Part shown: one piece after another, positions 35,311 through 50,268 of the stretch
How positions within the stretch are numbered: position 1 is the stretch's first letter
How the letters are laid out: the number at the start of each line of letters is the position of its first letter
The notes under the pieces: model-generated
Database searches by the model: none
Told to the model about the DNA's origin: nothing
Seen by the model: only the letters and a program-made list of their open reading frames with translations
Translations under genes and position numbers: made by a program
Assembly (NCBI GenBank): GCA_947460235.1
Contig: CANHGK010000004.1
Coordinates: 26,144 to 90,143 of the forward strand
Reading direction: 5' to 3'
Source of the DNA: Paenibacillaceae bacterium
GTDB lineage: Bacteria; Bacillota; Bacilli; Paenibacillales; CANHGK01
Length of the DNA: 64,000 nt

Positions 35311-36000
35311 TTAATTCCATTTGGCAACTGTATCTTTTTTCACGATTGATAAACTTGCATTACGATTCGCTACATCTTTTCCACTTAATGTTTTTTCAAC
35401 ACTCGACCATGTGCCTACTGTGTATTTATATTGAATGGTTGTCCCTGATTTCACGAGTGCTTTTGTATACCAAACGTTATTGGAACCATCTTTAGGAAAC
35501 ATCATGTAGCTTGTTGCAGACCATGCTTTATTACTAGAAGCGACGAATACCCGGTATCCCTTCGTTAATGTATCAGAAGGAACGGAAACTTCTAAATTGA
35601 CGACTCCATTGTAATTTGCGACTGTTTGTGTCGTATTCATATCATTCGTTCCTACATCGATTACACGGTTTGAAATTTCTTCGAACGAATTACCTTTTTC
35701 AAAGGTATTGGTTGTTCCAAGTGAAAATTTGAATTGATGTTTGCCTTGCGTCATCGGAATCGTTACTGTCCATTGACCGCTGTATCCGCTATAGCTGTAA
35801 CCGTAAGGTGATAAAGGAGTTGCCGTAGCGTTCCAACCGTTAAAATCCCCTGCAACATACACTTGAGCATCTGCTACATAAGGGCTATTTACGATGATCG
35901 TTACATTATGAACTGCTGGACTTGCTGCAAAGGCCGGCGAGATTAAGCTTACCATCATCATTATGACCAATCCTACAACTACCAATCCTTTTTTCACCAC
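35311..36000 (-). CDS. secreted protein made of two CBM20/CBM48-like starch-binding modules
   Basis: GTG start 8 nt after AGAGGTG. Signal peptide ...SPAFA. Module 1 VYVAGDFNGWN...GKHQFKF. Module 2 YRVFVASSNKAW...WYTKA...IQYKYTVGTWSSVE...NRN. Confidence 0.65.
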   Translation of the reverse strand: MVKKGLVVVGLVIMMMVSLISPAFAASPAVHNVTIIVNSPYVADAQVYVAGDFNGWNATATPLSPYGYSYSGYSGQWTVTIPMTQGKHQFKFSLGTTNTFEKGNSFEEISNRVIDVGTNDMNTTQTVANYNGVVNLEVSVPSDTLTKGYRVFVASSNKAWSATSYMMFPKDGSNNVWYTKALVKSGTTIQYKYTVGTWSSVEKTLSGKDVANRNASLSIVKKDTVAKWN

Positions 36001-36048: not shown

Positions 36049-36077
36049 AATGTATCACGATTGCACATTTCGAACAC
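36049..36077 (-). promoter_or_regulatory. promoter-like element GTGTTC-17-TACATT facing 35311..36000
   Basis: Read on the minus strand: ttcgGTGTTC gaaatgtgcaatcgtga TACATT. The -35 position is formed by the terminal repeat of array A. Confidence 0.35.
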
Positions 36078-36126
36078 CGAAGAATTTCCGAAAACATTCC
36101 ATTTCGGTACCGAAAAAACACCGAAA
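36074..36126. repeat. CCGAAA/TTTCGG repeat array A (5 cores, includes palindrome TTTCGGTACCGAAA)
   Basis: acaccgaagaatttccgaaaacattccatttcggtaccgaaaaaacaccgaaa. Confidence 0.9.
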
Positions 36127-36256
36127 TGAAAATGGCATGTCAACGAAAAGAAATTGAATGTATTCGCTTCCAATTAACTGAATTTTGAATCTTTATATCG
36201 ATTTAGTCACAATTCATCCAATTTGATCGTCACAGCTTTGACAAATCTCAATGTTT

Positions 36257-38497: not shown

Positions 38498-38643
38498 AAT
38501 ATCGCTCCTCAAGCTAAAATAATTTTCTGCATTAATTGGGCTTCTTGCATTAGGTGGGTAAAACGGAAATAGGAATAGAAGAAGTGAATCTAGAAAGTAG
38601 CAAACAAGAGGGTTTTGGAAGCGTTTTCTTGCGTTGTAAATTA

Positions 38644-38672
38644 ATAATAAATGTTGCTTTACGTGATGTCAA
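38644..38672 (-). promoter_or_regulatory. sigma-A-type promoter candidate for the LPMO-chitinase gene
   Basis: Minus strand TTGACA-17 nt-TATTAT, about 125 nt upstream of the ATG. Confidence 0.5.
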
Positions 38673-38744
38673 TGTACACTATTTTGAAAAGTTCATCTAT
38701 CCATGTATGCAATGCATGTTGAAGTTAGCAAATGGAGGAATCCT

Positions 38745-39880
38745 ATGTTTCAAAAAATAAGCGTTACAAATTGGGTCATTGGATTGATCGGACTTACCGG
38801 GTTGTTACTTTGAATTTTGTGGATTAGCGATATTCCAAATCATCCAATCGAATATTTTACTCGTTTTTATACACAAACGATGAATTTGTATCACGGTGAA
38901 CCGATTATTCGCTTCGGATATTACGGCATTGGATACCCATTATTTTTGAACTTGTTTTTTCAATTCACTGGTACACTCTCTATTGACAGTACACATTGGT
39001 TCAATATCTTTTGTTACATCGTTACATTTCTATGTTGAACAAATTGGATGAATCATACCGTAAAAAAATCCAAATGGAGAATTGTCAGCGCAGTAATGGT
39101 AGCTGAGTTTCCAAATTGAATTGCTGTTACGAATGTAACTAGTTCTCAATGCTTTAGTTTATTATTCACATGTTTTTAAATTCTAAATCATTTCGGACAG
39201 AATTACATAATATCACGATAGGTGCACTGATTGGCCTTTTAGCGATGAAAAAACCATTTTTTATAGCTTCCATTGAAGTCGTTTTATGCTGGGATTTTTT
39301 TGATACAAGTCATCTGGAAAGATTGGTTCCAACACGCAATTTTAATTATTTTAATGATTGGTCTCATATTATTCCATTTTTATGCAGTGTATACAACTGG
39401 AACGTTCTCCATTGTGTCTTATATTGGAGGATATAATGTGTTCTTAAATAATAATCAAAACCTAACCCGAGCATGGATGCCGATGAATCAAATCGAAAAA
39501 TCAGATTCATTCCGAAATCAACTCAATTAATTGTCCATATCCGCTTGATTGCCCAAATGCTGAAAAATATTATAAAAAAGAAGCTGTACATTTGATCATC
39601 GCTCATCCAAACAATTCTTAACCTTAGGTATCAAACGATGGTTGAATACATTTTGGTCCAAACATGATGATTTGACAACATAGGTTGCCGATAAATCCTG
39701 GATGAATAATGATGAACATTACAATTTTTAAAACCATGTACAGACACTTCAGAATTATTGGTACCGTATAACATTCATTTTAACCGTTGGAGGCACGATC
39801 GTTCCGACCTGAAGAGACCTTTGTTAGCGGTAATTTAGATTTTGTTTTTTTATGATTATTGAAATTGTTTTGGATGCAAA
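38745..39880 (+). pseudogene. decayed GT39/PMT_2-like membrane glycosyltransferase gene
   Basis: Good RBS (GGAGGA) and ATG at 38745, but the frame stops after 22 codons. Similarity continues in other frames (WISDIPNHP...YGIGYPLFLNLFFQF; YIGGYNVFLNNNQN) and is interrupted by several stops and frameshifts. The end is approximate. Confidence 0.5.
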
Positions 39881-39951
39881 TCATAGATTGTACTCGATGA
39901 AAAACGGGACACTCACAAACGGTTAAATACCGCTTGGGATGCCCCGTTTTT

Positions 39952-42900
39952 TTAATATGGTCTACCTGATTTTATTACGCCACCGGTTACTGTGTAAATG
40001 CCAGTTGAGAACGTGTAATTTTTCGAAGCATTATTATCCCATATCGTACTTCCATTATTAAAGCATGATTCAATACCTGAAGATGTTCCTACTGAAACGG
40101 TAATAACACTATATCCTGTGTAACCAGAAGAACTCATTGAAACACCAGGAGCCATCGTCCAAACACCACCAATTGGTCGATAATGAATATAAGCTGTTGG
40201 GAATGAATTTTTATAATAGACAGTGACAACATTCGATGGTGGTTCACCTTGACTTAAGATGCCATTATTAACTGTCCATATCCCGGTTGGTATGACGTAA
40301 TTTTGATTATTGTTGTTATCCCAACGTGTGCCGTTATCCGTAAACGCAGCTTTAGCGATTCCGGAAGGTCCACTTTGAATTGTTAATACCCAATACCCAT
40401 TCCCTGCATCTGCCATTGCAACACCTGGCATTGTCGTCCATTGAGTACCATTTAATGAGTAATGAATATTTGACTGAGTCCAAGCGTTATTGCGATAGAA
40501 GATTTTCACCGTATTGCTTGGAGAAGCTGTTGGCGTAACGGTTGGAACCGGTGTGATTGATGGTACCGGTGTAACCAGCGGTGTCGGTGTAGCCGAACCT
40601 ATTGGTGTAGATGTTGGAGAAGGTGTTGCATTTACAACGAAAAATGGTGAACCTTGACTCATCACTCCGTTGTTGATCGTCCAAATCCCTACCGGCACTG
40701 TATAGTTTTTGCTTGTATTATTATCCCATCTTGTACCATTATCTGTGAACGCAGCTTTTACTAATCCATTTCCGCCTGTTTCAATGACTCCAACCCAATA
40801 TCCATTCCCCGTGTCTGTTAACTTTAATCCCGGAGAAACGGTCCATGACGTTCCATTTGTTGTGTAATGGATATTCGCAGAGGTCCATGCAGTATTTCGA
40901 TAATATACCGTTACTTCAGTACTGGATAAATTAGGTGCACCAGATTGAATGTTTCCGTTATATACGTTCCATGTCCCAGGTTGGAAAGTATAATCTTTTC
41001 CGCCATAATTATCCCAATGTGTACCATTATCCGTAAATGCACAACGAACAATACCTTGGTTCGTCGTTAAGATCGTTGCCCGCCAATATCCAATGCCATA
41101 TTCACTTAGCTTCACACCAGGTGAAGTCGTCCATTTTATTCCATCCAATGAATAATGAATGTTCGCCTGATTCCATAGTGGATTGCGATAATACACCGTG
41201 ACAACGGTTGGGGTTGCACTTGGCGTATTTGTCGGCACAATCGAAGCCGTAACAAATGGTGTCGGTGAATTATTAATTGTAGGCGTCACTTGCGGTGTTA
41301 CCATTGGTGTAGTCGTTTGTTCAGGTATCGGAGTCAGCGTTGGTACTGCCGTTGGAATTGCACTATTTGTTGGCGCCGGTGTTGCTGTCAAAATTGGCGT
41401 CGCAGTTGGTACAGGAGTTGGTGTCCATATTACATCAGGAATTCCTTGCGTTAAGACTCCATTCTTTAATGTCCAGTTTCCTTGTGTAAATGAATAGTTT
41501 TTTCCGGCATTATTGTCCCAGCTTCCAATTCCGTCCGTAAAAGCAGCTTCAGAAATACTTGTAGCTGACCCTAAGCCAATAATCGTTTTATAATAAGAGA
41601 CTGAATCAAGGTATTGCATTTTCAAACCTGGCATTGCAGTCCAACTACTTAAATTTGTTTTGAAATGAATAAACGTATTTTGTAACCCTTTGTAATAAAT
41701 CGTAACCGATGCAGCACCCAAATTCGGCACACCAGCACTTACAACTCCATTATCGATCGTCCAAATTCCTGAACTGAGACTGTAATTACGATTCCCATTA
41801 TTGTCCCAGACATTAGTCCCTGAATTAAATGCTGCTTCGATACCTGCAACACTTCCTAGTGCAATCTCAATACTAGAATAACCAGCATATTCGCTTTGGT
41901 TCATTTTCGCACCTGGTATAACTGTCCAGGAACCACCAAGCAGATGATAATGTACATATTGTGTTAAACTCGCTGACTTATAATAGATCGTAACTTTTTG
42001 ATTTACCGGACTTGGTGTAGGGTTCATTGGTGTACTTGTCACTACTGGTGTACTTGTCACTACTGGTGTACTTGTCACTACTGGTGTACTTGTCACTACT
42101 GGTGTACTTGTCACTACTGGTGTGCTTGTCACTACTGGTGTGCTTGTCACTACTGGTGTGCTCGTTGGTGTTACCGTAGGTATGAATGTAGGAACCGTAG
42201 TATTCGTAGGCATGGTTCCATAAGTAACGGGTATACTTCTATCTGATACTGTCCCCAAGAGATCACTTGCTGTAATTACATATTGATATATTAGAGCAGA
42301 ATTAGCATTATTATCTGTAAAATTTGTACTTGTTGTTCTTCCCAACTTTGCATACGACCCTGGATCTGAAGACGTAACTTCTCTTCGGTAAACCTCATAC
42401 CCATTAATTCCATCATCATCTTCAGGTACAGACCACGATAAACTAACTTGAGAATTATTCAGTTGATTTGCTATTACATTTTTCGGTGCATCGGGAACTT
42501 GATTGATAGAAACATTAAGTCCGATATTTGGATATCCACTCAACTCGACTTCAAACCATTGACCTGCATCTAGCAAAATATTCATTAATTGTTTTTGTGG
42601 TGTATAAAGTCTTGTTCCATTTCTAGTGAATACTGTAGTCATTCCATCTACGTTATATATTTGATTCGTTGATGTGTCTGTCACTTGAATTGAATTGGAT
42701 TGTATTGTGTATTTTTTACCTGTACCATAAACTAAAAACCGTTTACGAACGGTATCTAACCCGGCATGATCACCTACATCTATCGATACCGTTGCCGAAG
42801 GATTTGACAAATTCCCCGCCATATCTCTCGCTTTAAGGTAAAAAGTATTAATCTTATTCTTCGTATTTAATGTAAAGATGCTAACATCCGTTCCTGACGC

Positions 42901-45162
42901 TGTTGCAATTGGTCTAGTATCGTCTCCACCAAAAACTAAATAATCACTAACTTCTATGTTATCCGTAGATGGGGACCATGAGAACGATACCTTTTCTTCC
43001 GTTGCAGTAACCGTAACATTTGTTGGGATCGTTGGAGCAATTGAATCAGTAAGATCAACTGGAATACCTGTACTTACCAATGAGAAACGTTGTGCATTTA
43101 ATACAGTTACTCCAACAACCTCAACAGTCCACGTCCCAATTTGAGGTGCAGGGATGATTAATCTTTCCACCGTGTTATATAAGCTGTTGCTTGTATAAAC
43201 TTTTCCGCTAGGATCCGTAATTCGCAAATCAAGATTATTTATTACTGGGATATTGGACAATAAATCACTCGGCGGATCAATCCATGACATTGCTGCACGT
43301 AACGGTTTTGTAGAATCGTTAATTTGAATTTGATAAACCGCTGATTTTCCTCCAGAAATACTCCGTTGATCGGAATACATCCAATCCCCCGCAGGAATTG
43401 CTGAGTCAAGGTTTAATCTTCCCCAACCTTGTTTATCCATGCCTACGCCACTTAATACATCTGCACCATTTACGAGTGCAGCTTTGATTAATGAGGCACT
43501 TGGATTAATATTTTTAGTCTTAAAAAATTGTCGTAACAATGCAGCTGACCCACTAACCATTGGAGTAGCCATACTTGTACCTTGCATCGACGTATAATAT
43601 ATATTTGTTCCATAAATTGGACTTGATGAATGTGATGATCGTGTTGATACAACAGCGCCTGCACCAGGTGCAACCAAATCGGGTTTTACTCGCTGATCGT
43701 ATGCCGTTGGGCCTGCGGCGCTCCAAGATGCGACCATATCACTTCTAGAAACGCCATTTAGCACATTCGTCGCATTAATTGACGCTCCAACGGTTAGCAT
43801 ATTTTTTGCCATCGAAGGTTCTTCCAGATAGCAGTTGTTTCCCGCAGCACCGACATACACAAACGTATTCTTATAAGTGGCATCAGTCGGATCCCACTCT
43901 TGATGGTTATAAATAAAATTATCGACTTCTTGTGAATAAATACTATATTCATTAAACGTATAATTTGCATAATCTCTTGCTCGTATCGTCGCGTCACAAG
44001 GATCACCATATGAATAACCATATGTCCAACTATTATTACTTACTCGAGCCCCATGATCCCAAGCTTCTTGCATCGATTGATCATTCGAAGGTGATTGAAA
44101 ATCAATACCAAACAACTTTGCTCCAGGGGAAATACCTTTATATCCTGTATTATTTCCATTTGAAGCAATAATTCCGCCTACATGCGTACCATGTCCAATT
44201 TCATCCCATGTGAATGGTAATGCGCCATACGTGATCGAACCATTTAATGCATTTCCTACGTCAGGGTGCATTTGATCCAACCCAGTATCAACCAACGCAA
44301 CCAATTCTCCAGATCCGTCAATGGTAGAACTTGTTGAACTAAGTCGATTTAAAGCTACATCTGTTTTCGTAATATTTCTTGCTGTTTTCAATGCTGGAAT
44401 CGCTTTTACTTTGGCTGGTTGAATGTATACAATTTCGGGAGATGAAGCAATCGCCAAAATATTCGAACGTTCAATTTCACATTCAACGAGGGACAAATCA
44501 ATTTTTGAAATTTGTTTTGCGTTCAATAAAACTAATAATTTAGAAACAGAATCATACGATTTTTCGTCCCATAATTTTAAAGCAACCTTTACCTTAGTAG
44601 ATTGATCCACGGAAGGAATCACATGATGATTTACATCTATTAAACGTGAGTCTAATTTCATAAAATCTTCAATATTTATTAATGATAAAATGTTAACGTC
44701 CGATTGGAGTTGCGGAATAATACTTTCCGGAACTCTGATCCGATATGAATCTGTGGATAAAGGCGAACCAAATTTACCACCCAATAATTCAATCGTTTGC
44801 CTAACCGTGTCAAAAACATCCGGTTTCAATTCCAACAACAACTGAATGCTTTCGGAATCTTGAATGTTTTTCAGAACATTTTGTGTTTTATTTTTTAATT
44901 TTAGTGTTTTTGAAGGCTTAAATTCACCAAAACGAGTTTTGATCGATCGCACAATATTTTTTGGAGCTGGTTCCGTTCCAAAATACAATGGACTCGCTTC
45001 AATGACTTTGTCATTGTTTTTAGCGTTTGGAACTAATGAATTCGAAAAAACAGGAGTTGATGACGCGTAGGATGGAGATGCAAGCGCAACGGCAACAGGA
45101 AAAATCACCTGCATAATCATTAGCAACGTGCAAAAAAGGTACCAAAATTTGTTTCGAGACAT
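39952..45162 (-). CDS. secreted multidomain S8 subtilisin-like protease with Fn3-like domains and six CBM25-like modules
   Basis: ATG 45162 lies 9 nt after GAGGTG. Signal peptide. Catalytic triad contexts VALVDTGLD, GHGTHVGG, GTSMATPMVSG. Six repeats of the pattern V(T/K)(I/V)YY...(I/V)HY...W(T)..PG..M...FxxGxxxWDNNxxxNY. Confidence 0.9.
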   Translation of the reverse strand: MSRNKFWYLFCTLLMIMQVIFPVAVALASPSYASSTPVFSNSLVPNAKNNDKVIEASPLYFGTEPAPKNIVRSIKTRFGEFKPSKTLKLKNKTQNVLKNIQDSESIQLLLELKPDVFDTVRQTIELLGGKFGSPLSTDSYRIRVPESIIPQLQSDVNILSLINIEDFMKLDSRLIDVNHHVIPSVDQSTKVKVALKLWDEKSYDSVSKLLVLLNAKQISKIDLSLVECEIERSNILAIASSPEIVYIQPAKVKAIPALKTARNITKTDVALNRLSSTSSTIDGSGELVALVDTGLDQMHPDVGNALNGSITYGALPFTWDEIGHGTHVGGIIASNGNNTGYKGISPGAKLFGIDFQSPSNDQSMQEAWDHGARVSNNSWTYGYSYGDPCDATIRARDYANYTFNEYSIYSQEVDNFIYNHQEWDPTDATYKNTFVYVGAAGNNCYLEEPSMAKNMLTVGASINATNVLNGVSRSDMVASWSAAGPTAYDQRVKPDLVAPGAGAVVSTRSSHSSSPIYGTNIYYTSMQGTSMATPMVSGSAALLRQFFKTKNINPSASLIKAALVNGADVLSGVGMDKQGWGRLNLDSAIPAGDWMYSDQRSISGGKSAVYQIQINDSTKPLRAAMSWIDPPSDLLSNIPVINNLDLRITDPSGKVYTSNSLYNTVERLIIPAPQIGTWTVEVVGVTVLNAQRFSLVSTGIPVDLTDSIAPTIPTNVTVTATEEKVSFSWSPSTDNIEVSDYLVFGGDDTRPIATASGTDVSIFTLNTKNKINTFYLKARDMAGNLSNPSATVSIDVGDHAGLDTVRKRFLVYGTGKKYTIQSNSIQVTDTSTNQIYNVDGMTTVFTRNGTRLYTPQKQLMNILLDAGQWFEVELSGYPNIGLNVSINQVPDAPKNVIANQLNNSQVSLSWSVPEDDDGINGYEVYRREVTSSDPGSYAKLGRTTSTNFTDNNANSALIYQYVITASDLLGTVSDRSIPVTYGTMPTNTTVPTFIPTVTPTSTPVVTSTPVVTSTPVVTSTPVVTSTPVVTSTPVVTSTPVVTSTPMNPTPSPVNQKVTIYYKSASLTQYVHYHLLGGSWTVIPGAKMNQSEYAGYSSIEIALGSVAGIEAAFNSGTNVWDNNGNRNYSLSSGIWTIDNGVVSAGVPNLGAASVTIYYKGLQNTFIHFKTNLSSWTAMPGLKMQYLDSVSYYKTIIGLGSATSISEAAFTDGIGSWDNNAGKNYSFTQGNWTLKNGVLTQGIPDVIWTPTPVPTATPILTATPAPTNSAIPTAVPTLTPIPEQTTTPMVTPQVTPTINNSPTPFVTASIVPTNTPSATPTVVTVYYRNPLWNQANIHYSLDGIKWTTSPGVKLSEYGIGYWRATILTTNQGIVRCAFTDNGTHWDNYGGKDYTFQPGTWNVYNGNIQSGAPNLSSTEVTVYYRNTAWTSANIHYTTNGTSWTVSPGLKLTDTGNGYWVGVIETGGNGLVKAAFTDNGTRWDNNTSKNYTVPVGIWTINNGVMSQGSPFFVVNATPSPTSTPIGSATPTPLVTPVPSITPVPTVTPTASPSNTVKIFYRNNAWTQSNIHYSLNGTQWTTMPGVAMADAGNGYWVLTIQSGPSGIAKAAFTDNGTRWDNNNNQNYVIPTGIWTVNNGILSQGEPPSNVVTVYYKNSFPTAYIHYRPIGGVWTMAPGVSMSSSGYTGYSVITVSVGTSSGIESCFNNGSTIWDNNASKNYTFSTGIYTVTGGVIKSGRPY
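42032..42165. repeat. 18-bp tandem repeat, about 7.5 copies (encodes TSTPVV linker)
   Basis: gtacttgtcactactggt x5 exact, then gtgcttgtcactactggt x2, then a degenerate copy. Confidence 0.95.
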
Positions 45163-45352
45163 TAAGGGGTACACCTCACACTTTCATAAAAATCGGGGGT
45201 ATATTTATCAATCGAGTAAACAATTAAATAAAAGTAATTTCATTCAAACGTTTTCATGTTTATGTATTAGTATAAAACAAGTTTTTCGAGTTGAAAAGCC
45301 ATTGAACTGAATTGACAAAAATTCTCCTTATTCTTTTCCTGAATTTTGAACA

Positions 45353-45413
45353 AAAAAATCCGCATCCATCTGAACTGTGACCACTAAGATGGTCACAGTT
45401 CAGATGGATGCGG
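45353..45413 (-). terminator. very strong rho-independent terminator (24-bp perfect stem)
   Basis: ccgcatccatctgaactgtgacca / tggtcacagttcagatggatgcgg with a 6-nt loop, followed by T7 on the minus strand. Confidence 0.8.
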
Positions 45414-45469
45414 TAATTAGAAAACCCATTGGGGGAATTGGATAAAGGAATTTAAGTGGACAAATGAGG

Positions 45470-45670
45470 TTAAATCAAGCGGTGAGGACCAAGCGCATGA
45501 TACATTGGATGTTTAACTACCGGATATGGTGATGTTAAAGATCGAAACGATTCACTAACTTTTCCTGTTTCATCATTACTATGATCATCATCGTTATTGC
45601 CAGATCCAATTAAAGGGGTATATGCATAAAATAACGTTATCATTTCAATAGGATATTGCGGTGTATTCAT
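45470..45670 (-). CDS. small hypothetical protein (66 aa)
   Basis: ATG lies 9 nt after GGAGGA. Bounded by a promoter-like element and the strong terminator. No recognisable domain. Confidence 0.45.
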   Translation of the reverse strand: MNTPQYPIEMITLFYAYTPLIGSGNNDDDHSNDETGKVSESFRSLTSPYPVVKHPMYHALGPHRLI

Positions 45671-45704
45671 TCATTCGTTCCTCCAGTAATTTTCTTATAC
45701 GCTT

Positions 45705-45734
45705 ATTCTACACCTTGAACATGCGTTTGCGCAC
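45705..45734 (-). promoter_or_regulatory. promoter-like element GTGCGC-18-TAGAAT facing orf66
   Basis: Minus strand: ttcgGTGCGC aaacgcatgttcaaggtg TAGAAT. The -35 position is formed by the terminal repeat of array B. Confidence 0.35.
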
Positions 45735-45854
45735 CGAAGAATAACCGAAAACTTTTGATTTCGGTTATTCTTCGGTTTGATTTCGGTCACGTTACGGCAC
45801 CGAAATCAATCCACTGTGAAAACTTTTCGGTAAAAAGAACGGAATCTTCGGTGT
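45732..45854. repeat. CCGAAA/TTTCGG repeat array B (8 cores; 18-bp perfect-stem palindrome; 11-bp inverted repeat)
   Basis: accgaagaataaccgaaa-ACTTTTGA-tttcggttattcttcggt (45733-45776). ttgatttcggt-N11-accgaaatcaa (45777-45809). Further units at 45825 and 45846. Confidence 0.9.
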
Positions 45855-45879
45855 ATTTTTAGTTAGTTTGCTTTATGAT
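45851..45879 (+). promoter_or_regulatory. promoter-like element GTGTAT-17-TATGAT facing right from array B
   Basis: ttcgGTGTAT ttttagttagtttgctt TATGAT. Confidence 0.3.
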
Positions 45880-45885
45880 TTAAAT

Positions 45886-46010
45886 AGACAAAGAACAAAT
45901 CGAACTAACCAATAATCTTTCCTCACCATCAATATGCTCTTCGCATTCCCCGTATTAGCCTTCATGTTTCGAAAACGTCTGGTCTCCCCGACCAGACGTT
46001 TTCGGTTTTA
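45886..46010 (+). ncRNA. candidate short transcript (about 120 nt, C-rich) between the array B promoter-like element and a terminator
   Basis: Bounded by the element above and the hairpin 45972-46002. No ORF with an RBS. Contains ctttcctcacc and ttcccc tracts. Purely predicted. Confidence 0.25.
45972..46010. terminator. stem-loop terminator candidate (13-bp perfect stem)
   Basis: aaaacgtctggtc-tcccc-gaccagacgtttt, then cggtttta. The orientation is ambiguous. Confidence 0.5.
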
Positions 46011-46019
46011 AAATTAAAA

Positions 46020-46062
46020 AAGGTGCGACCAATTTGAGTAGCACTTCACTCGGTCACACCTT
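46020..46062 (-). terminator. possible terminator after orf70
   Basis: aaggtgcgacc...ggtcacacctt (11-bp stem with one wobble and a large loop), then a T-rich run on the minus strand. Confidence 0.4.
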
Positions 46063-46068
46063 AATGAA

Positions 46069-46281
46069 CTATTCAAAAATTGCATTGTTTTCGTTATCAT
46101 ACGGATCTCTCAATACACGCATTTTAAATGGTCCTTGAAATAACGAACTTACTCTTGCTTTGACGTCATTACGATCCATTTCATTTAAATGCAATGATGA
46201 GACGATTTCGGAATCATTTGAGTGAAATAAGAACATTCCAACATAACTTTTTTCATGAAAAATTGCTCCATTAAAGCTCAT
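46069..46281 (-). CDS. small hypothetical protein (70 aa)
   Basis: ATG lies 10 nt after AGGAGG. A promoter-like element sits upstream and a hairpin downstream. No recognisable domain. Confidence 0.5.
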   Translation of the reverse strand: MSFNGAIFHEKSYVGMFLFHSNDSEIVSSLHLNEMDRNDVKARVSSLFQGPFKMRVLRDPYDNENNAIFE

Positions 46282-46332
46282 CGATGAAAAACCTCCTGCG
46301 TGGTATCTATCGGGGAATTCCCTATATCTTAA

Positions 46333-46361
46333 ATTTTAGCAATGAAAGCGCTTTAAAACAC
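46333..46361 (-). promoter_or_regulatory. promoter-like element GTGTTT-17-TAAAAT facing orf70
   Basis: Minus strand: ttcgGTGTTT taaagcgctttcattgc TAAAAT. Confidence 0.4.
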
Positions 46362-46505
46362 CGAAAGAAAACCGAAAACTTTTGATTTCGGTTTTCTTTC
46401 GGTGTTACTGCGATTTGATTTCGGTATGATTTCGGTATTACTGCGATTTGATTTCGGTACCGAAATCAAATCTCTTCGTTAATCTTTCGGTTATTTTTCG
46501 GTGTC
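46357..46505. repeat. CCGAAA/TTTCGG repeat array C (10 cores; 21-bp perfect-stem palindrome; 20-bp direct repeat x2; 28-bp perfect palindrome)
   Basis: aacaccgaaagaaaaccgaaa-ACTTTTGA-tttcggttttctttcggtgtt (46357-46406). actgcgatttgatttcggta at 46407 and 46440. GATTTGATTTCGGTACCGAAATCAAATC at 46445-46472. Confidence 0.95.
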
Positions 46506-46529
46506 AGTTGTGATTTTACATGATAGTAT
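46501..46529 (+). promoter_or_regulatory. promoter-like element GTGTCA-17-TAGTAT (with TG at the extended -10 position) facing right from array C
   Basis: ttcgGTGTCA gttgtgattttacaTGa TAGTAT. Confidence 0.4.
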
Positions 46530-46535
46530 TAGGTT

Positions 46536-46688
46536 ATGAACAACCCCTCCATAATAAACGAAACTTCCACATACTTGCCGGAGAAACATTCGCTTCCTTC
46601 CCAAGGAAACAGTTTCACCCAACCTCTCAAACCACCTGCAATTTAGAATCGCCTGCAACCGAGCTCCCACGGTTCAGGCATTTTTTAT
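46536..46688 (+). ncRNA. candidate short transcript (about 150 nt, C-rich and G-poor), or a leaderless 36-codon ORF
   Basis: Lies between the element above and the terminator 46651-46688. Contains cccctcc, cttccttccc and cacccaacctc tracts. An ATG sits at the predicted +1 (46536) and opens 36 codons without an RBS. Purely predicted. Confidence 0.3.
46651..46688 (+). terminator. rho-independent terminator
   Basis: gcctgcaaccg-agctccca-cggttcaggc followed by T6. Confidence 0.6.
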
Positions 46689-47062
46689 TGTTTGGTTCAT
46701 TCGTAGCTCCCGTTAAGATATTTCACTAATATTTTGAAGTAATTCAACTATGAATTACACGATATGCAGATTGCTTTTACGAGTCATTTCAACATGTCAC
46801 AGTAAGCAATACAGCTCAAACAACGTCGTTAATCGGGGGCGAATGTTTTGAGTGTATTTTAGTAAAACTAACTAGCCGGTACATACGATGTTATAAATAT
46901 CATTTAGATTGAATAATATGATATTTTTAGTGTATTATAGAGCAAAATCGATTGCACACGAAAGAAGGATTTCATCTACTGTTAGCGAATGTATAAATCA
47001 AACCCTTTTCAAACAGATAGTTTTTCGTAGGGATTAATTTAAAGTGAAAGGAGCTGTTGGTT

Positions 47063-49520: not shown

Positions 49521-49557
49521 AAAAAAACATCCCTTACAATTAAGGGATGTTTTTTAT
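49521..49557. terminator. bidirectional terminator
   Basis: aacatccctta-caat-taagggatgtt flanked by A7 and T6. Confidence 0.75.
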
Positions 49558-50057
49558 TAATCTATCCGAATTTGCCAATGTAACCATTTGGATTTACGGT
49601 CATTCAATAATTTTATTGAATTGCCTTCACTCCATTCACGCATCACTAAACAAATGAATGCATATTCCCTAATTTCCTTTGGAATGAAAAGCGAAATATT
49701 CTTATCAAACGTACGAATTCGAATACCTTTTCTGCGAAATTGGATACTTGCGACCATTTCCTTGGATACCGTAATTGCTGGCTTATGCGTCTCTAAAGAA
49801 GTAATTCGATCTTCTTCTAAAAATACCCGTTGTGATTCCCAACTTTCTTTCATACGAACAAAAAAGAATGTACCTAAAATTGAAAGTATACATCCCCAAA
49901 ACAGTCCAATTCCGATTCGCCACGATTGGTCGATTCCTAGATAATCTACTAAACTAATCAATACCGCAAATAAGACGGTGAATGCTAAGATCATCCAAAG
50001 AATTAAATTCATTTTCAACAAAGATAAATTTCGTTCGTTAATTCGACATTCTCTCAT
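49557..50057 (-). CDS. hypothetical membrane protein (2 TM plus a cytoplasmic domain)
   Basis: ATG 50057 lies 7 nt after GGAGG. Two hydrophobic helices, then a soluble domain of about 90 aa. Confidence 0.55.
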   Translation of the reverse strand: MRECRINERNLSLLKMNLILWMILAFTVLFAVLISLVDYLGIDQSWRIGIGLFWGCILSILGTFFFVRMKESWESQRVFLEEDRITSLETHKPAITVSKEMVASIQFRRKGIRIRTFDKNISLFIPKEIREYAFICLVMREWSEGNSIKLLNDRKSKWLHWQIRID

Positions 50058-50098: not shown

Positions 50099-50127
50099 AT
50101 CGTATCATTTATTCATCACGCTTACAC
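50099..50127 (-). promoter_or_regulatory. promoter-like element GTGTAA-17-TACGAT facing 49557..50057
   Basis: Minus strand: ttcgGTGTAA gcgtgatgaataaatga TACGAT. Confidence 0.35.
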
Positions 50128-50231
50128 CGAAAAATCCACTGCGAATTACCGAAAAAATACCGAAAGAAATTCATTTCGGTACCGAAAAAATACCGAAAGA
50201 AATTCATTTCGGTACCGAAAAAATACCGAAA
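50124..50231. repeat. CCGAAA/TTTCGG repeat array D (9 cores; 33-bp tandem repeat x2.6, each copy with TTTCGGTACCGAAA)
   Basis: accgaaaaaataccgaaagaaattcatttcggt at 50148-50180 and 50181-50213, with a partial third copy. An outer acaccgaaaaatccactgcga lies at 50124. Confidence 0.95.
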
Positions 50232-50268
50232 AAAAACACGTGAAAAAGTTCTTTTCACGTGTTTTTTT
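50231..50268 (-). terminator. terminator after the anti-sigma gene
   Basis: aaacacgtgaaaa...cttttcacgtgttt flanked by A-rich and T-rich runs. Confidence 0.7.

Follow-up and report, generated by a model that had tools for sequence, protein, structure and literature searches.

Arrays of an 11-bp tile at predicted promoters in and around a gene-poor island of an uncultured Paenibacillaceae-like bacterium

A 64,000-nucleotide stretch of contig CANHGK010000004.1 (Paenibacillaceae bacterium, assembly GCA_947460235.1, positions 26,144 to 90,143 of the forward strand), hereafter the window, contains a gene-poor island between a protease gene and a PilZ-like gene. The island holds two arrays of an 11-bp tile, each set between a small gene that reads leftward (orf66 or orf70) and a short terminated unit that reads rightward (unit 1 or unit 2), and two further arrays of the same tile lie elsewhere in the window. 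We consider it likely that all four arrays serve as a lattice to which a single sequence-specific protein binds, probably an activator that would drive six predicted sigma-A-type promoters within 14 kb. We read the arrays in this way because their tiles sit in the −35 region and follow the direction of transcription, a class II architecture like that of Pho-box promoters. All positions given below are those of the window.

If this reading is true, the arrays embody a clean and unusually regular cis-regulatory code, in which an 11-bp tile stands at a fixed 21 bp from an extended −10 box and its orientation gives direction, in an organism without a cultured or sequenced close relative. The motif could be put to direct use in tracing the extent of the regulon across the full genome and in isolating the binding protein. 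The locus would also yield two well-delimited candidate small RNAs (sRNAs) and two candidate small proteins that, on the same condition, are co-regulated with a secreted starch-binding protein. What is new here is a regulatory motif in an uncultured bacterium. The system as such is of no new class, and each of its components (regulator-binding repeat arrays, divergent promoters, orphan small proteins and C-rich sRNAs) has known counterparts.

Four intergenic arrays share a single 11-bp lattice

Cut into 11-bp blocks, the arrays resolve into contiguous tilings of wwkwTTTCGGT in either orientation. The repeated word, TTCGGT or its reverse complement ACCGAA, occurs as 31 exact hexamers within the four arrays, and the tile core (TCGG) is invariant in all 31 sites while the flanks vary. 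Across the window, TTCGGT-N5-TTCGGT with at most one mismatch was observed 13 times against 0.36 expected, and all 13 occurrences lie inside the four intergenic arrays. A position matrix for the tile returned only scattered single matches in the rest of the window.

Array B (45733..45852) contains about 11 tiles, arranged as < < > > > ? < ? > ? >, with one 1-bp slip. Array C (46360..46502) is a gapless run of 13 tiles (< < > > ? > > ? > < ? > >) and contains a 33-bp higher-order repeat. The third array (36076..36130) has 5 tiles and lies upstream of a gene for a CBM20 protein, and the fourth (50126..50235), with 10 tiles and three 33-bp repeats, lies upstream of a membrane protein gene.

The tiles occupy a single 11-bp lattice, that is, one helical face. 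Successive tile spacings fall on one lattice in 26 of 27 cases, measuring 11 or 22 bp between tiles of the same orientation, 16 or 27 bp between diverging tiles (< >) and 6 or 17 bp between converging tiles (> <). A preliminary description of this DNA, made from its letters alone, had drawn attention to long palindromes in the two island arrays and proposed that they act as DNA, as operators or cruciforms, and not as RNA structure. The palindromes are present and a role as DNA agrees with the position of the arrays upstream of both promoters in each divergent pair, but the cruciform idea was not borne out, as the palindromes arise because tile orientation flips inside a run and are a by-product of such switches on the 11-bp lattice.

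A few tiles are degenerate. Several of these share the sequence ACTG[CT]GA (45813-45821, 46407-46413, 46440-46446 and 50139-50145, in three arrays), which may represent either a tile variant or a binding site for another factor. At 46381-46457 and 50148-50235 the tiles are grouped as 33-bp higher-order repeats of three tiles each; these repeats suggest recent expansion by unequal recombination or slippage.

Array edges stand at a fixed distance from predicted −10 boxes

At all six array edges that face a predicted transcription unit, the last tile is TTCGGTG when read toward that unit. The distance from this edge tile to a TAnnnT −10 box is 21 bp at five of the six edges and 22 bp for orf66, which places the tile at about −39 to −34, where a −35 box would be expected. 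The hexamers at the −35 positions match TTGACA at two to four of six bases, and no edge has a good −35 box. TAnnnT at N20-22 is present at 6/6 edges (background, 0.056 per site) and TGnTAnnnT at exactly N18 from the edge tile at 4/6 (background, 0.0012), where the background probabilities are indicative only because the promoter patterns were spotted before they were counted.

Within the island, the predicted −10 box of orf66 is TAGAAT (45705..45710, minus strand), which lacks an extended TGn, and that of orf70 is the extended TGcTAAAAT (46333..46338, minus strand). On the plus strand, unit 1 has TATGAT (45874..45879), also without the extended TGn, and unit 2 has the extended TGaTAGTAT (46521..46529). 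The two other predicted boxes, both extended and both on the minus strand, are TGaTACATT (36049-36054) and TGaTACGAT (50099-50104), each 21 bp from its edge tile. The first of these array-type promoters would serve the gene for the secreted protein with a CBM20 starch-binding module (35311..36000, minus strand) and the second the gene for a 166-aa membrane protein with two transmembrane segments (49557..50057, minus strand).

Two tiles in the form TTCGGT-N5-TTCGGT cover the promoter region from about −50 to −34, except upstream of the gene for the 166-aa protein, where the next tile is two periods off. The right edges of the third and fourth arrays (36076..36130 and 50126..50235) consist of tiles in the opposite orientation that abut the 3' ends of genes, and no rightward promoter was found at either. 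Tile orientation thus tracks the predicted direction of transcription, and tiles fill the −35 region of the six predicted promoters.

A proposed tile-binding activator and the case for a repressor

In the mechanism that we propose, one DNA-binding protein would oligomerize along the tiles and, at the array edges, contact RNA polymerase, so that the six sigma-A-type promoters would fire together through class II-type activation as at Pho-box promoters. Leftward from arrays B and C, this would switch on the orphan small proteins orf66 and orf70. Rightward, it would switch on two short, G-poor, C-rich, largely unstructured and terminated RNAs, which would most likely act as trans-acting base-pairing sRNAs. 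The third and fourth arrays, which have the same geometry, would drive the secreted CBM20 gene and the small membrane protein gene. A more far-reaching version, which we hold to be doubtful, is that a hitherto undescribed DNA-tiling regulator, restricted to a deep-branching lineage, polymerizes on up to 13 contiguous 11-bp tiles, takes promoter direction from tile orientation and co-activates an orphan protein and an anti-Shine-Dalgarno sRNA as a tandem-repeated output module.

Several observations weigh against the activator lattice. The promoters and transcription start sites are predictions from sequence. The regulatory genes in the window encode hybrid histidine kinases, a 911-aa receiver protein, an extracytoplasmic function (ECF) sigma/anti-sigma pair and a SigI/RsgI-like pair, and beyond the two sigma factors no DNA-binding output domain was recognized in the window's proteins. 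In particular, the window has no recognizable response regulator with a DNA-binding domain (Trans_reg_C), and no gene for a small ribbon-helix-helix (RHH) or helix-turn-helix protein is recognizable next to any array. The pattern ACCGAA-N5-ACCGAA-N10-TTCGGT gave 24 scattered matches in 185,579 species genomes, which is about the number expected by chance. Gene neighborhoods around the flanking molybdopterin oxidoreductase are unrelated in its Cohnella and Paenibacillus relatives, with no synteny, and copies of the island in four assemblies from other samples are 100% identical and offer no variation. Duplex prediction of the rightward units against 43 start regions of the window, a check that the preliminary description had proposed, performed no better than shuffled RNAs. 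Finally, an activator is not needed for an extended −10 box to work, and the lattice could therefore equally be a repressor site.

This last point leads to a minority possibility that we take seriously, in which the lattice is the same and the bound protein is a repressor or silencer. Such a protein would coat the array and occlude both flanking promoters, as ParR does on parC or omega on its heptads, and the extended −10 promoters would be constitutive without it. Contiguous short iterons that occur in both orientations and span two promoters are typical of RHH operators, and the extended −10 boxes of four of the six promoters would need neither a −35 box nor an activator. A parallel comes from a phage contig (L191; IMG/VR UViG_3300037420_001135), in which TTTCGGTA tiles in both orientations (1575-1660) lie directly upstream of a 162-aa gene with an RHH-like N-terminus. 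The only Pfam matches are weak and sub-threshold (DUF6364, TacA1, HicB-like), and no homologue of this gene was found in the window; by analogy, it may represent the kind of protein that binds such tiles. A second RHH-like gene lies nearby on the same contig.

The geometry of the arrays sits less easily with occlusion. Every array stops at about −34, leaving both the −10 box and the start site uncovered. Tile orientation matches the direction of the adjacent promoter, a property that matters for contact with polymerase and not for occlusion. Furthermore, no RHH or other autoregulator gene adjoins any array, and neither family searches nor predicted structures revealed RHH features in orf66 or orf70.

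The arrays belong to none of three known families of repeat-bound promoters

Pho-box promoters are bound by PhoB/PhoP, which are OmpR-family response regulators, and in Bacillus subtilis they carry at least four TT(A/T/C)ACA hexamers with 11-bp periodicity. The arrays described here are similar in that hexamers recur every 11 bp and replace the −35 box of sigma-A/sigma-70 promoters, in that the repeats are oriented according to the direction of transcription and in that several dispersed promoters would form one regulon. They differ in the tile itself, which is TTTCGGT (consensus, wwkwTTTCGGT) as opposed to TTAACA in Bacillus or CTGTCAT in E. coli, and in runs that are much longer (5-13 tiles), contiguous, interspersed with inverted tiles and able to serve two divergent promoters. 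At Pho-box promoters the proximal repeat ends about 10 bp from the −10 box, whereas here the gap is 21 bp. A cognate response regulator with a winged-helix DNA-binding domain was not found in the window.

RHH proteins bind iteron operators of comparable appearance. The parC site of plasmid R1, bound by ParR, consists of ten 11-bp repeats that flank a promoter, and the omega repressor of pSM19035 binds 7-bp heptads in direct and inverted orientation. Common features are contiguous short repeats at promoters (5, about 11, 13 and 10 tiles in the present arrays), the 11-bp period of R1 parC, the mixed orientation of the omega heptads and a protein that polymerizes on the repeats, which is known for those systems and proposed for this one. 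The known systems, however, are autoregulatory, encode the binding protein directly downstream and have partition or plasmid genes alongside, whereas the genes downstream of the present arrays encode orphan small proteins without RHH features, a CBM20 protein and a membrane protein, and the locus is chromosomal.

A third comparison is provided by RemA of Bacillus subtilis, an octameric ring that protects at least six periodic 7-bp sites with 3-bp gaps upstream of the promoters PepsA and PtapA (PMC8481266). Periodic 7-bp sites with short spacers, reaching 50-150 bp upstream of activated promoters in a Bacillales organism, are a shared trait, and binding by wrapping or along one face is likely in both cases. 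RemA sites are nevertheless AT-rich, poorly conserved direct repeats with a 10-bp period, in contrast to the invariant core, 11-bp period and two orientations of the tiles. The tile system thus misses at least one defining feature of each of the Pho-box, RHH iteron and RemA families and is a member of none of them.

Other identities were rejected by comparison with known consensus sequences. These include the Spo0A box (TGTCGAA), the GerE site (RWWTRGGY), the PurBox and the Noc/parS site, as well as ECF and SigI promoters and the −10 boxes of sigma-K, sigma-E, sigma-G and sigma-H.

The island encodes two probable orphan small proteins

The island consists of four short units in two divergent pairs, orf66 with an RNA of about 120 nt and orf70 with an RNA of about 155 nt, and each unit has its own promoter-like site and intrinsic terminator. 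All four terminator hairpins fold strongly and have a U-run on the expected strand only. The preliminary description had listed these elements and viewed them as independent transcription units. Each was found where it had been put or no more than a few bases away, and the predicted promoters and strand-specific terminators lend the four-unit anatomy further support.

The first small gene, orf66 (45470..45670, minus strand), encodes an acidic 66-aa orphan protein. It starts with ATG, has GGAGG 9 nt upstream and is followed by an intrinsic terminator (45353..45413, minus strand) with a perfect 25-bp stem at 45360-45413 (−48.9 kcal/mol, z = −11.9) and a U-run at 45353-45359. The second, orf70 (46069..46281, minus strand), encodes an acidic 70-aa orphan, starts with ATG preceded by AGGAGG at 10 nt and ends in a terminator (46014..46062, minus strand) whose stem at 46020-46062 leads into U6 (46014-46019).

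A codon model trained on 30 long window genes, with out-of-frame and antisense frames as the reference, gave log-odds per codon of 0.365 for orf66 and 0.229 for orf70. Real 66-codon chunks average 0.275 and wrong frames −0.12, and only 0.2% and 1.4% of wrong frames score above orf66 and orf70, respectively. Because this codon usage comes together with Shine-Dalgarno sequences and with dedicated predicted promoters and terminators, orf66 and orf70 are probably real genes, in line with their initial designation.

As initially stated, the two proteins resemble neither each other, by alignment, nor any described family. No match was found for either in Pfam, NCBIfam, PHROGs, PADLOC or the PDB, and orf70 has no homologue among 5.8 billion proteins. 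An exhaustive HMMER search matched orf66 to a 1730-aa protein encoded by an intron-containing gene on an 88-Mb eukaryotic chromosome; we rejected this match as spurious because its score is a sum over 20 near-identical repeats at about 5 bits each. The orphan status of the two proteins says little, since the lineage is distant and the neighboring 159-aa PilZ-like protein is an orphan as well.

In AlphaFold (AF2) predictions made without an alignment, orf66 is disordered (predicted TM-score, 0.16), and orf70 adopts a small beta-beta-beta-alpha-beta fold at low confidence (predicted local distance difference test, 66). Against the PDB, the orf70 model gave only a generic, non-significant beta-beta-beta-alpha-beta match to ASKHA N-subdomains (E >= 0.036). 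A type I toxin-antitoxin system was considered and rejected, as orf66 and orf70 are hydrophilic, the RNAs diverge without overlap and there is no complementarity of 12 nt or more.

The rightward units are plausible sRNA genes

Unit 1 (45886..46008, plus strand) is a candidate noncoding RNA of about 120 nt. Its 5' 80 nt are unstructured and G-poor, and its terminator (45969-46004, plus strand) has a 16-bp stem followed by UUUU (z = −7.5). Unit 2 (46536..46692, plus strand) is a candidate noncoding RNA of about 155 nt, with 33% C and 10% G, that ends in a terminator (46651-46688, plus strand) followed by U6. Both units fold into a largely unpaired 5' part and then the terminator.

The C-rich, G-poor composition that had been noted for these units is real. 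Upstream of the terminators, G accounts for 10% and C for 29-33% of the sequence, and in a ranking of same-length window segments by excess of C over G, unit 1 falls within the top 1.5% and unit 2 within the top 0.07%. The C-rich tracts (CCCCUCC, CUUCCUUCCC and UUUCCUCACC) could pair with Shine-Dalgarno sequences. A predicted promoter of their own, an intrinsic terminator, apparent lack of coding content and an accessible seed are generic features of trans-acting sRNAs, and on these sequence features units 1 and 2 are plausible sRNA genes.

C-rich Firmicute sRNAs such as RsaE/RoxS and FsrA are likewise short, terminated and independently transcribed (a prediction in the present case), with unpaired C-rich tracts. 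Unlike them, units 1 and 2 have no Rfam match even at E = 10 and no homologous loci among the collections that were searched, and target prediction in the window stays at the level of chance. No Rfam model, of RsaE/RoxS or another family, matched the window at its gathering score, and at E values up to 10 the island yielded only hairpin-driven chance matches, for example to microRNA and small nucleolar RNA models. The best duplex of unit 1 is with the CBM20 gene, at −31.5 kcal/mol against a shuffled minimum of −28.4 ± 2.8 kcal/mol, and no complementarity of 12 nt or more to the rightward units was found within the window.

We find it quite unlikely, but worth weighing, that the rightward units are something other than trans-acting sRNAs. 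Unit 2 might be the leaderless mRNA of a 36-aa peptide (46536..46646, plus strand) or a terminated 5' leader of the PilZ-like gene, unit 1 might be the by-product of a bidirectional promoter, or both might be G-poor relics of decayed minus-strand genes. The ATG of the leaderless open reading frame (ORF), at 46536, falls exactly 7 nt past the predicted −10 box and its stop codon falls just before the terminator. The PilZ-like gene lies 370 nt beyond the unit 2 terminator and shares the strand of unit 2. A C-rich, G-poor plus strand is also the normal signature opposite the minus-strand genes of the window, and no target was found in the window for either unit. These points are met by codon log-odds of −0.03 for the 36-codon ORF, −0.17 for a 69-codon ORF and −0.30 for a 25-codon ORF in unit 1, all of which are like noncoding frames. 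No start codon lies near the predicted 5' end of unit 1, and because this unit faces a convergent gene it cannot be a leader; the PilZ-like gene has a promoter-like site of its own (46909-46938); minus-strand frames across the units are not clearly gene-like; and the strong terminators dedicated to the two units are confined to the plus strand.

For unit 2, a leaderless peptide or a role as leader of the PilZ-like gene is less likely than an sRNA. The initial view of the rightward units as noncoding and sRNA-like holds with one qualification, namely that unit 2 contains the possible leaderless ORF, whose codon usage does not resemble that of genes.

The 3' arm and tail of the unit 1 terminator also form a lone good tile, ACGTTTTCGGT (45996-46006; matrix score, 12.3), which sits between the convergent ends of unit 1 and orf70.

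The two modules share an architecture and repeat tiles but not a duplicated sequence

The preliminary description had interpreted the two halves of the island as a duplicated cassette of a small protein and an sRNA. We compared modules 1 and 2 by local alignment with shuffling and found that they are alike in their repeat tiles only. The arrays align with z = 18, as compared with z = 1.8 for the ORFs, −0.8 for the leader and promoter segments and −0.9 for the plus-strand units; the two small proteins are likewise dissimilar. The repetition of the modules is therefore one of regulatory design and architecture and not of sequence duplication.

The same tiles also precede the CBM20 and membrane protein genes, which are unrelated to the island genes and have no rightward unit. 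A protein-plus-sRNA cassette thus fails as the common theme, and the factor shared by these loci would be the binding lattice of a regulator.

Similar tiles elsewhere

The three-tile pattern used for the species genomes was also searched in metagenomes. The 76 matches were rejected, as they represent either plant-like TTCGGTTCGG repeats or a different, Bacteroidales tile, TTCGGTGGA[CG]A. The latter is an 11-bp tile that occurs in both orientations as a repeated element of rumen contigs (L008, L009, L011, L024, L025, L030, L050, L065, L075, L084, L089, L093 and L104), with flanks conserved between copies, and it looks like a dispersed or mobile element.

BLASTN comparison of the island with plasmids and phages revealed no similarity. 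In viral contigs (L118-L196 and more), TTCGGT-N5-TTCGGT-N5-TTCGGT occurs at no fewer than 120 loci, far above chance. Of the viral matches listed, the majority are simple tandem repeats with an 11-bp period, built from many unrelated sequences, suggesting that phage genomes very commonly contain iterons of this length. A literature search for the motif strings returned nothing relevant.

That the arrays are selfish or structural repeats (palindromes like repetitive extragenic palindromic or miniature inverted-repeat transposable elements, or curved phased T-tracts), with no dedicated binding protein and an incidental association with promoters, is highly improbable. In favor of this idea, the arrays are palindrome-rich, intergenic and dispersed, the 11-bp phasing of their T and A runs would make the DNA bend, and other 11-bp tile elements are repeated in Bacteroidales and phages. 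Against it, the invariance of TCGG amid variable flanks is the opposite of what selection for curvature alone would produce, tile number and order differ in each array with no conserved flanks or target-site duplications, and all six edges keep the same distance and orientation with respect to their −10 boxes.

Source organism and surrounding genes

The region studied is part of a 337.6-kb metagenome scaffold (MEHR18-2 scaffold_15; ENA ERZ28612991), and the GC content of the window is 38.7%. The best relatives of the flanking molybdopterin oxidoreductase are in Cohnella and Paenibacillus and reach no more than 57% identity. Because these best relatives are so distant, we place the organism, on sequence, in a distant, uncultured Paenibacillaceae-like lineage.

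Contigs from four other sequencing runs (SRR6787519, SRR6788424, ERR3761213 and ERR3761210) each match the window at 100% identity along about 1.1-2 kb, and the identity of the island in these runs indicates that the same clone is present in several data sets. One of the four runs appears in a paper on Swedish lakes (PMC10244341).

Many secreted polysaccharide- and protein-degrading enzymes are encoded around the island. The neighborhood includes two CBM25 alpha-amylases, an LPMO-GH18 chitinase, a SNase/Excalibur nuclease, a GH57-GT4 fusion and an S8 protease of 1740 aa with six CBM25 modules (39952..45174, minus strand). On the right flank of the island, the plus-strand gene for the 159-aa PilZ-like protein matches the Pfam PilZ model weakly (21.2 bits, with a cut-off of 22.5), and its product has no homologue in the protein database searched.

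The 1.4 kb between the chitinase and protease genes (38513-39951) contain no long ORF and several hydrophobic plus-strand ORF fragments in differing frames. This segment may be a decayed membrane-protein gene, a suggestion that has no Pfam support.

The S8 protease gene (39952-45174) is one unbroken ORF in the window. The public gene calls of the scaffold give only its C-terminal 691 aa and place small spurious genes over the N-terminal part. A tandem PVVTST-coding repeat at 41998-42250 is a linker within the protease gene and yields spurious repetitive ORFs on the opposite strand.

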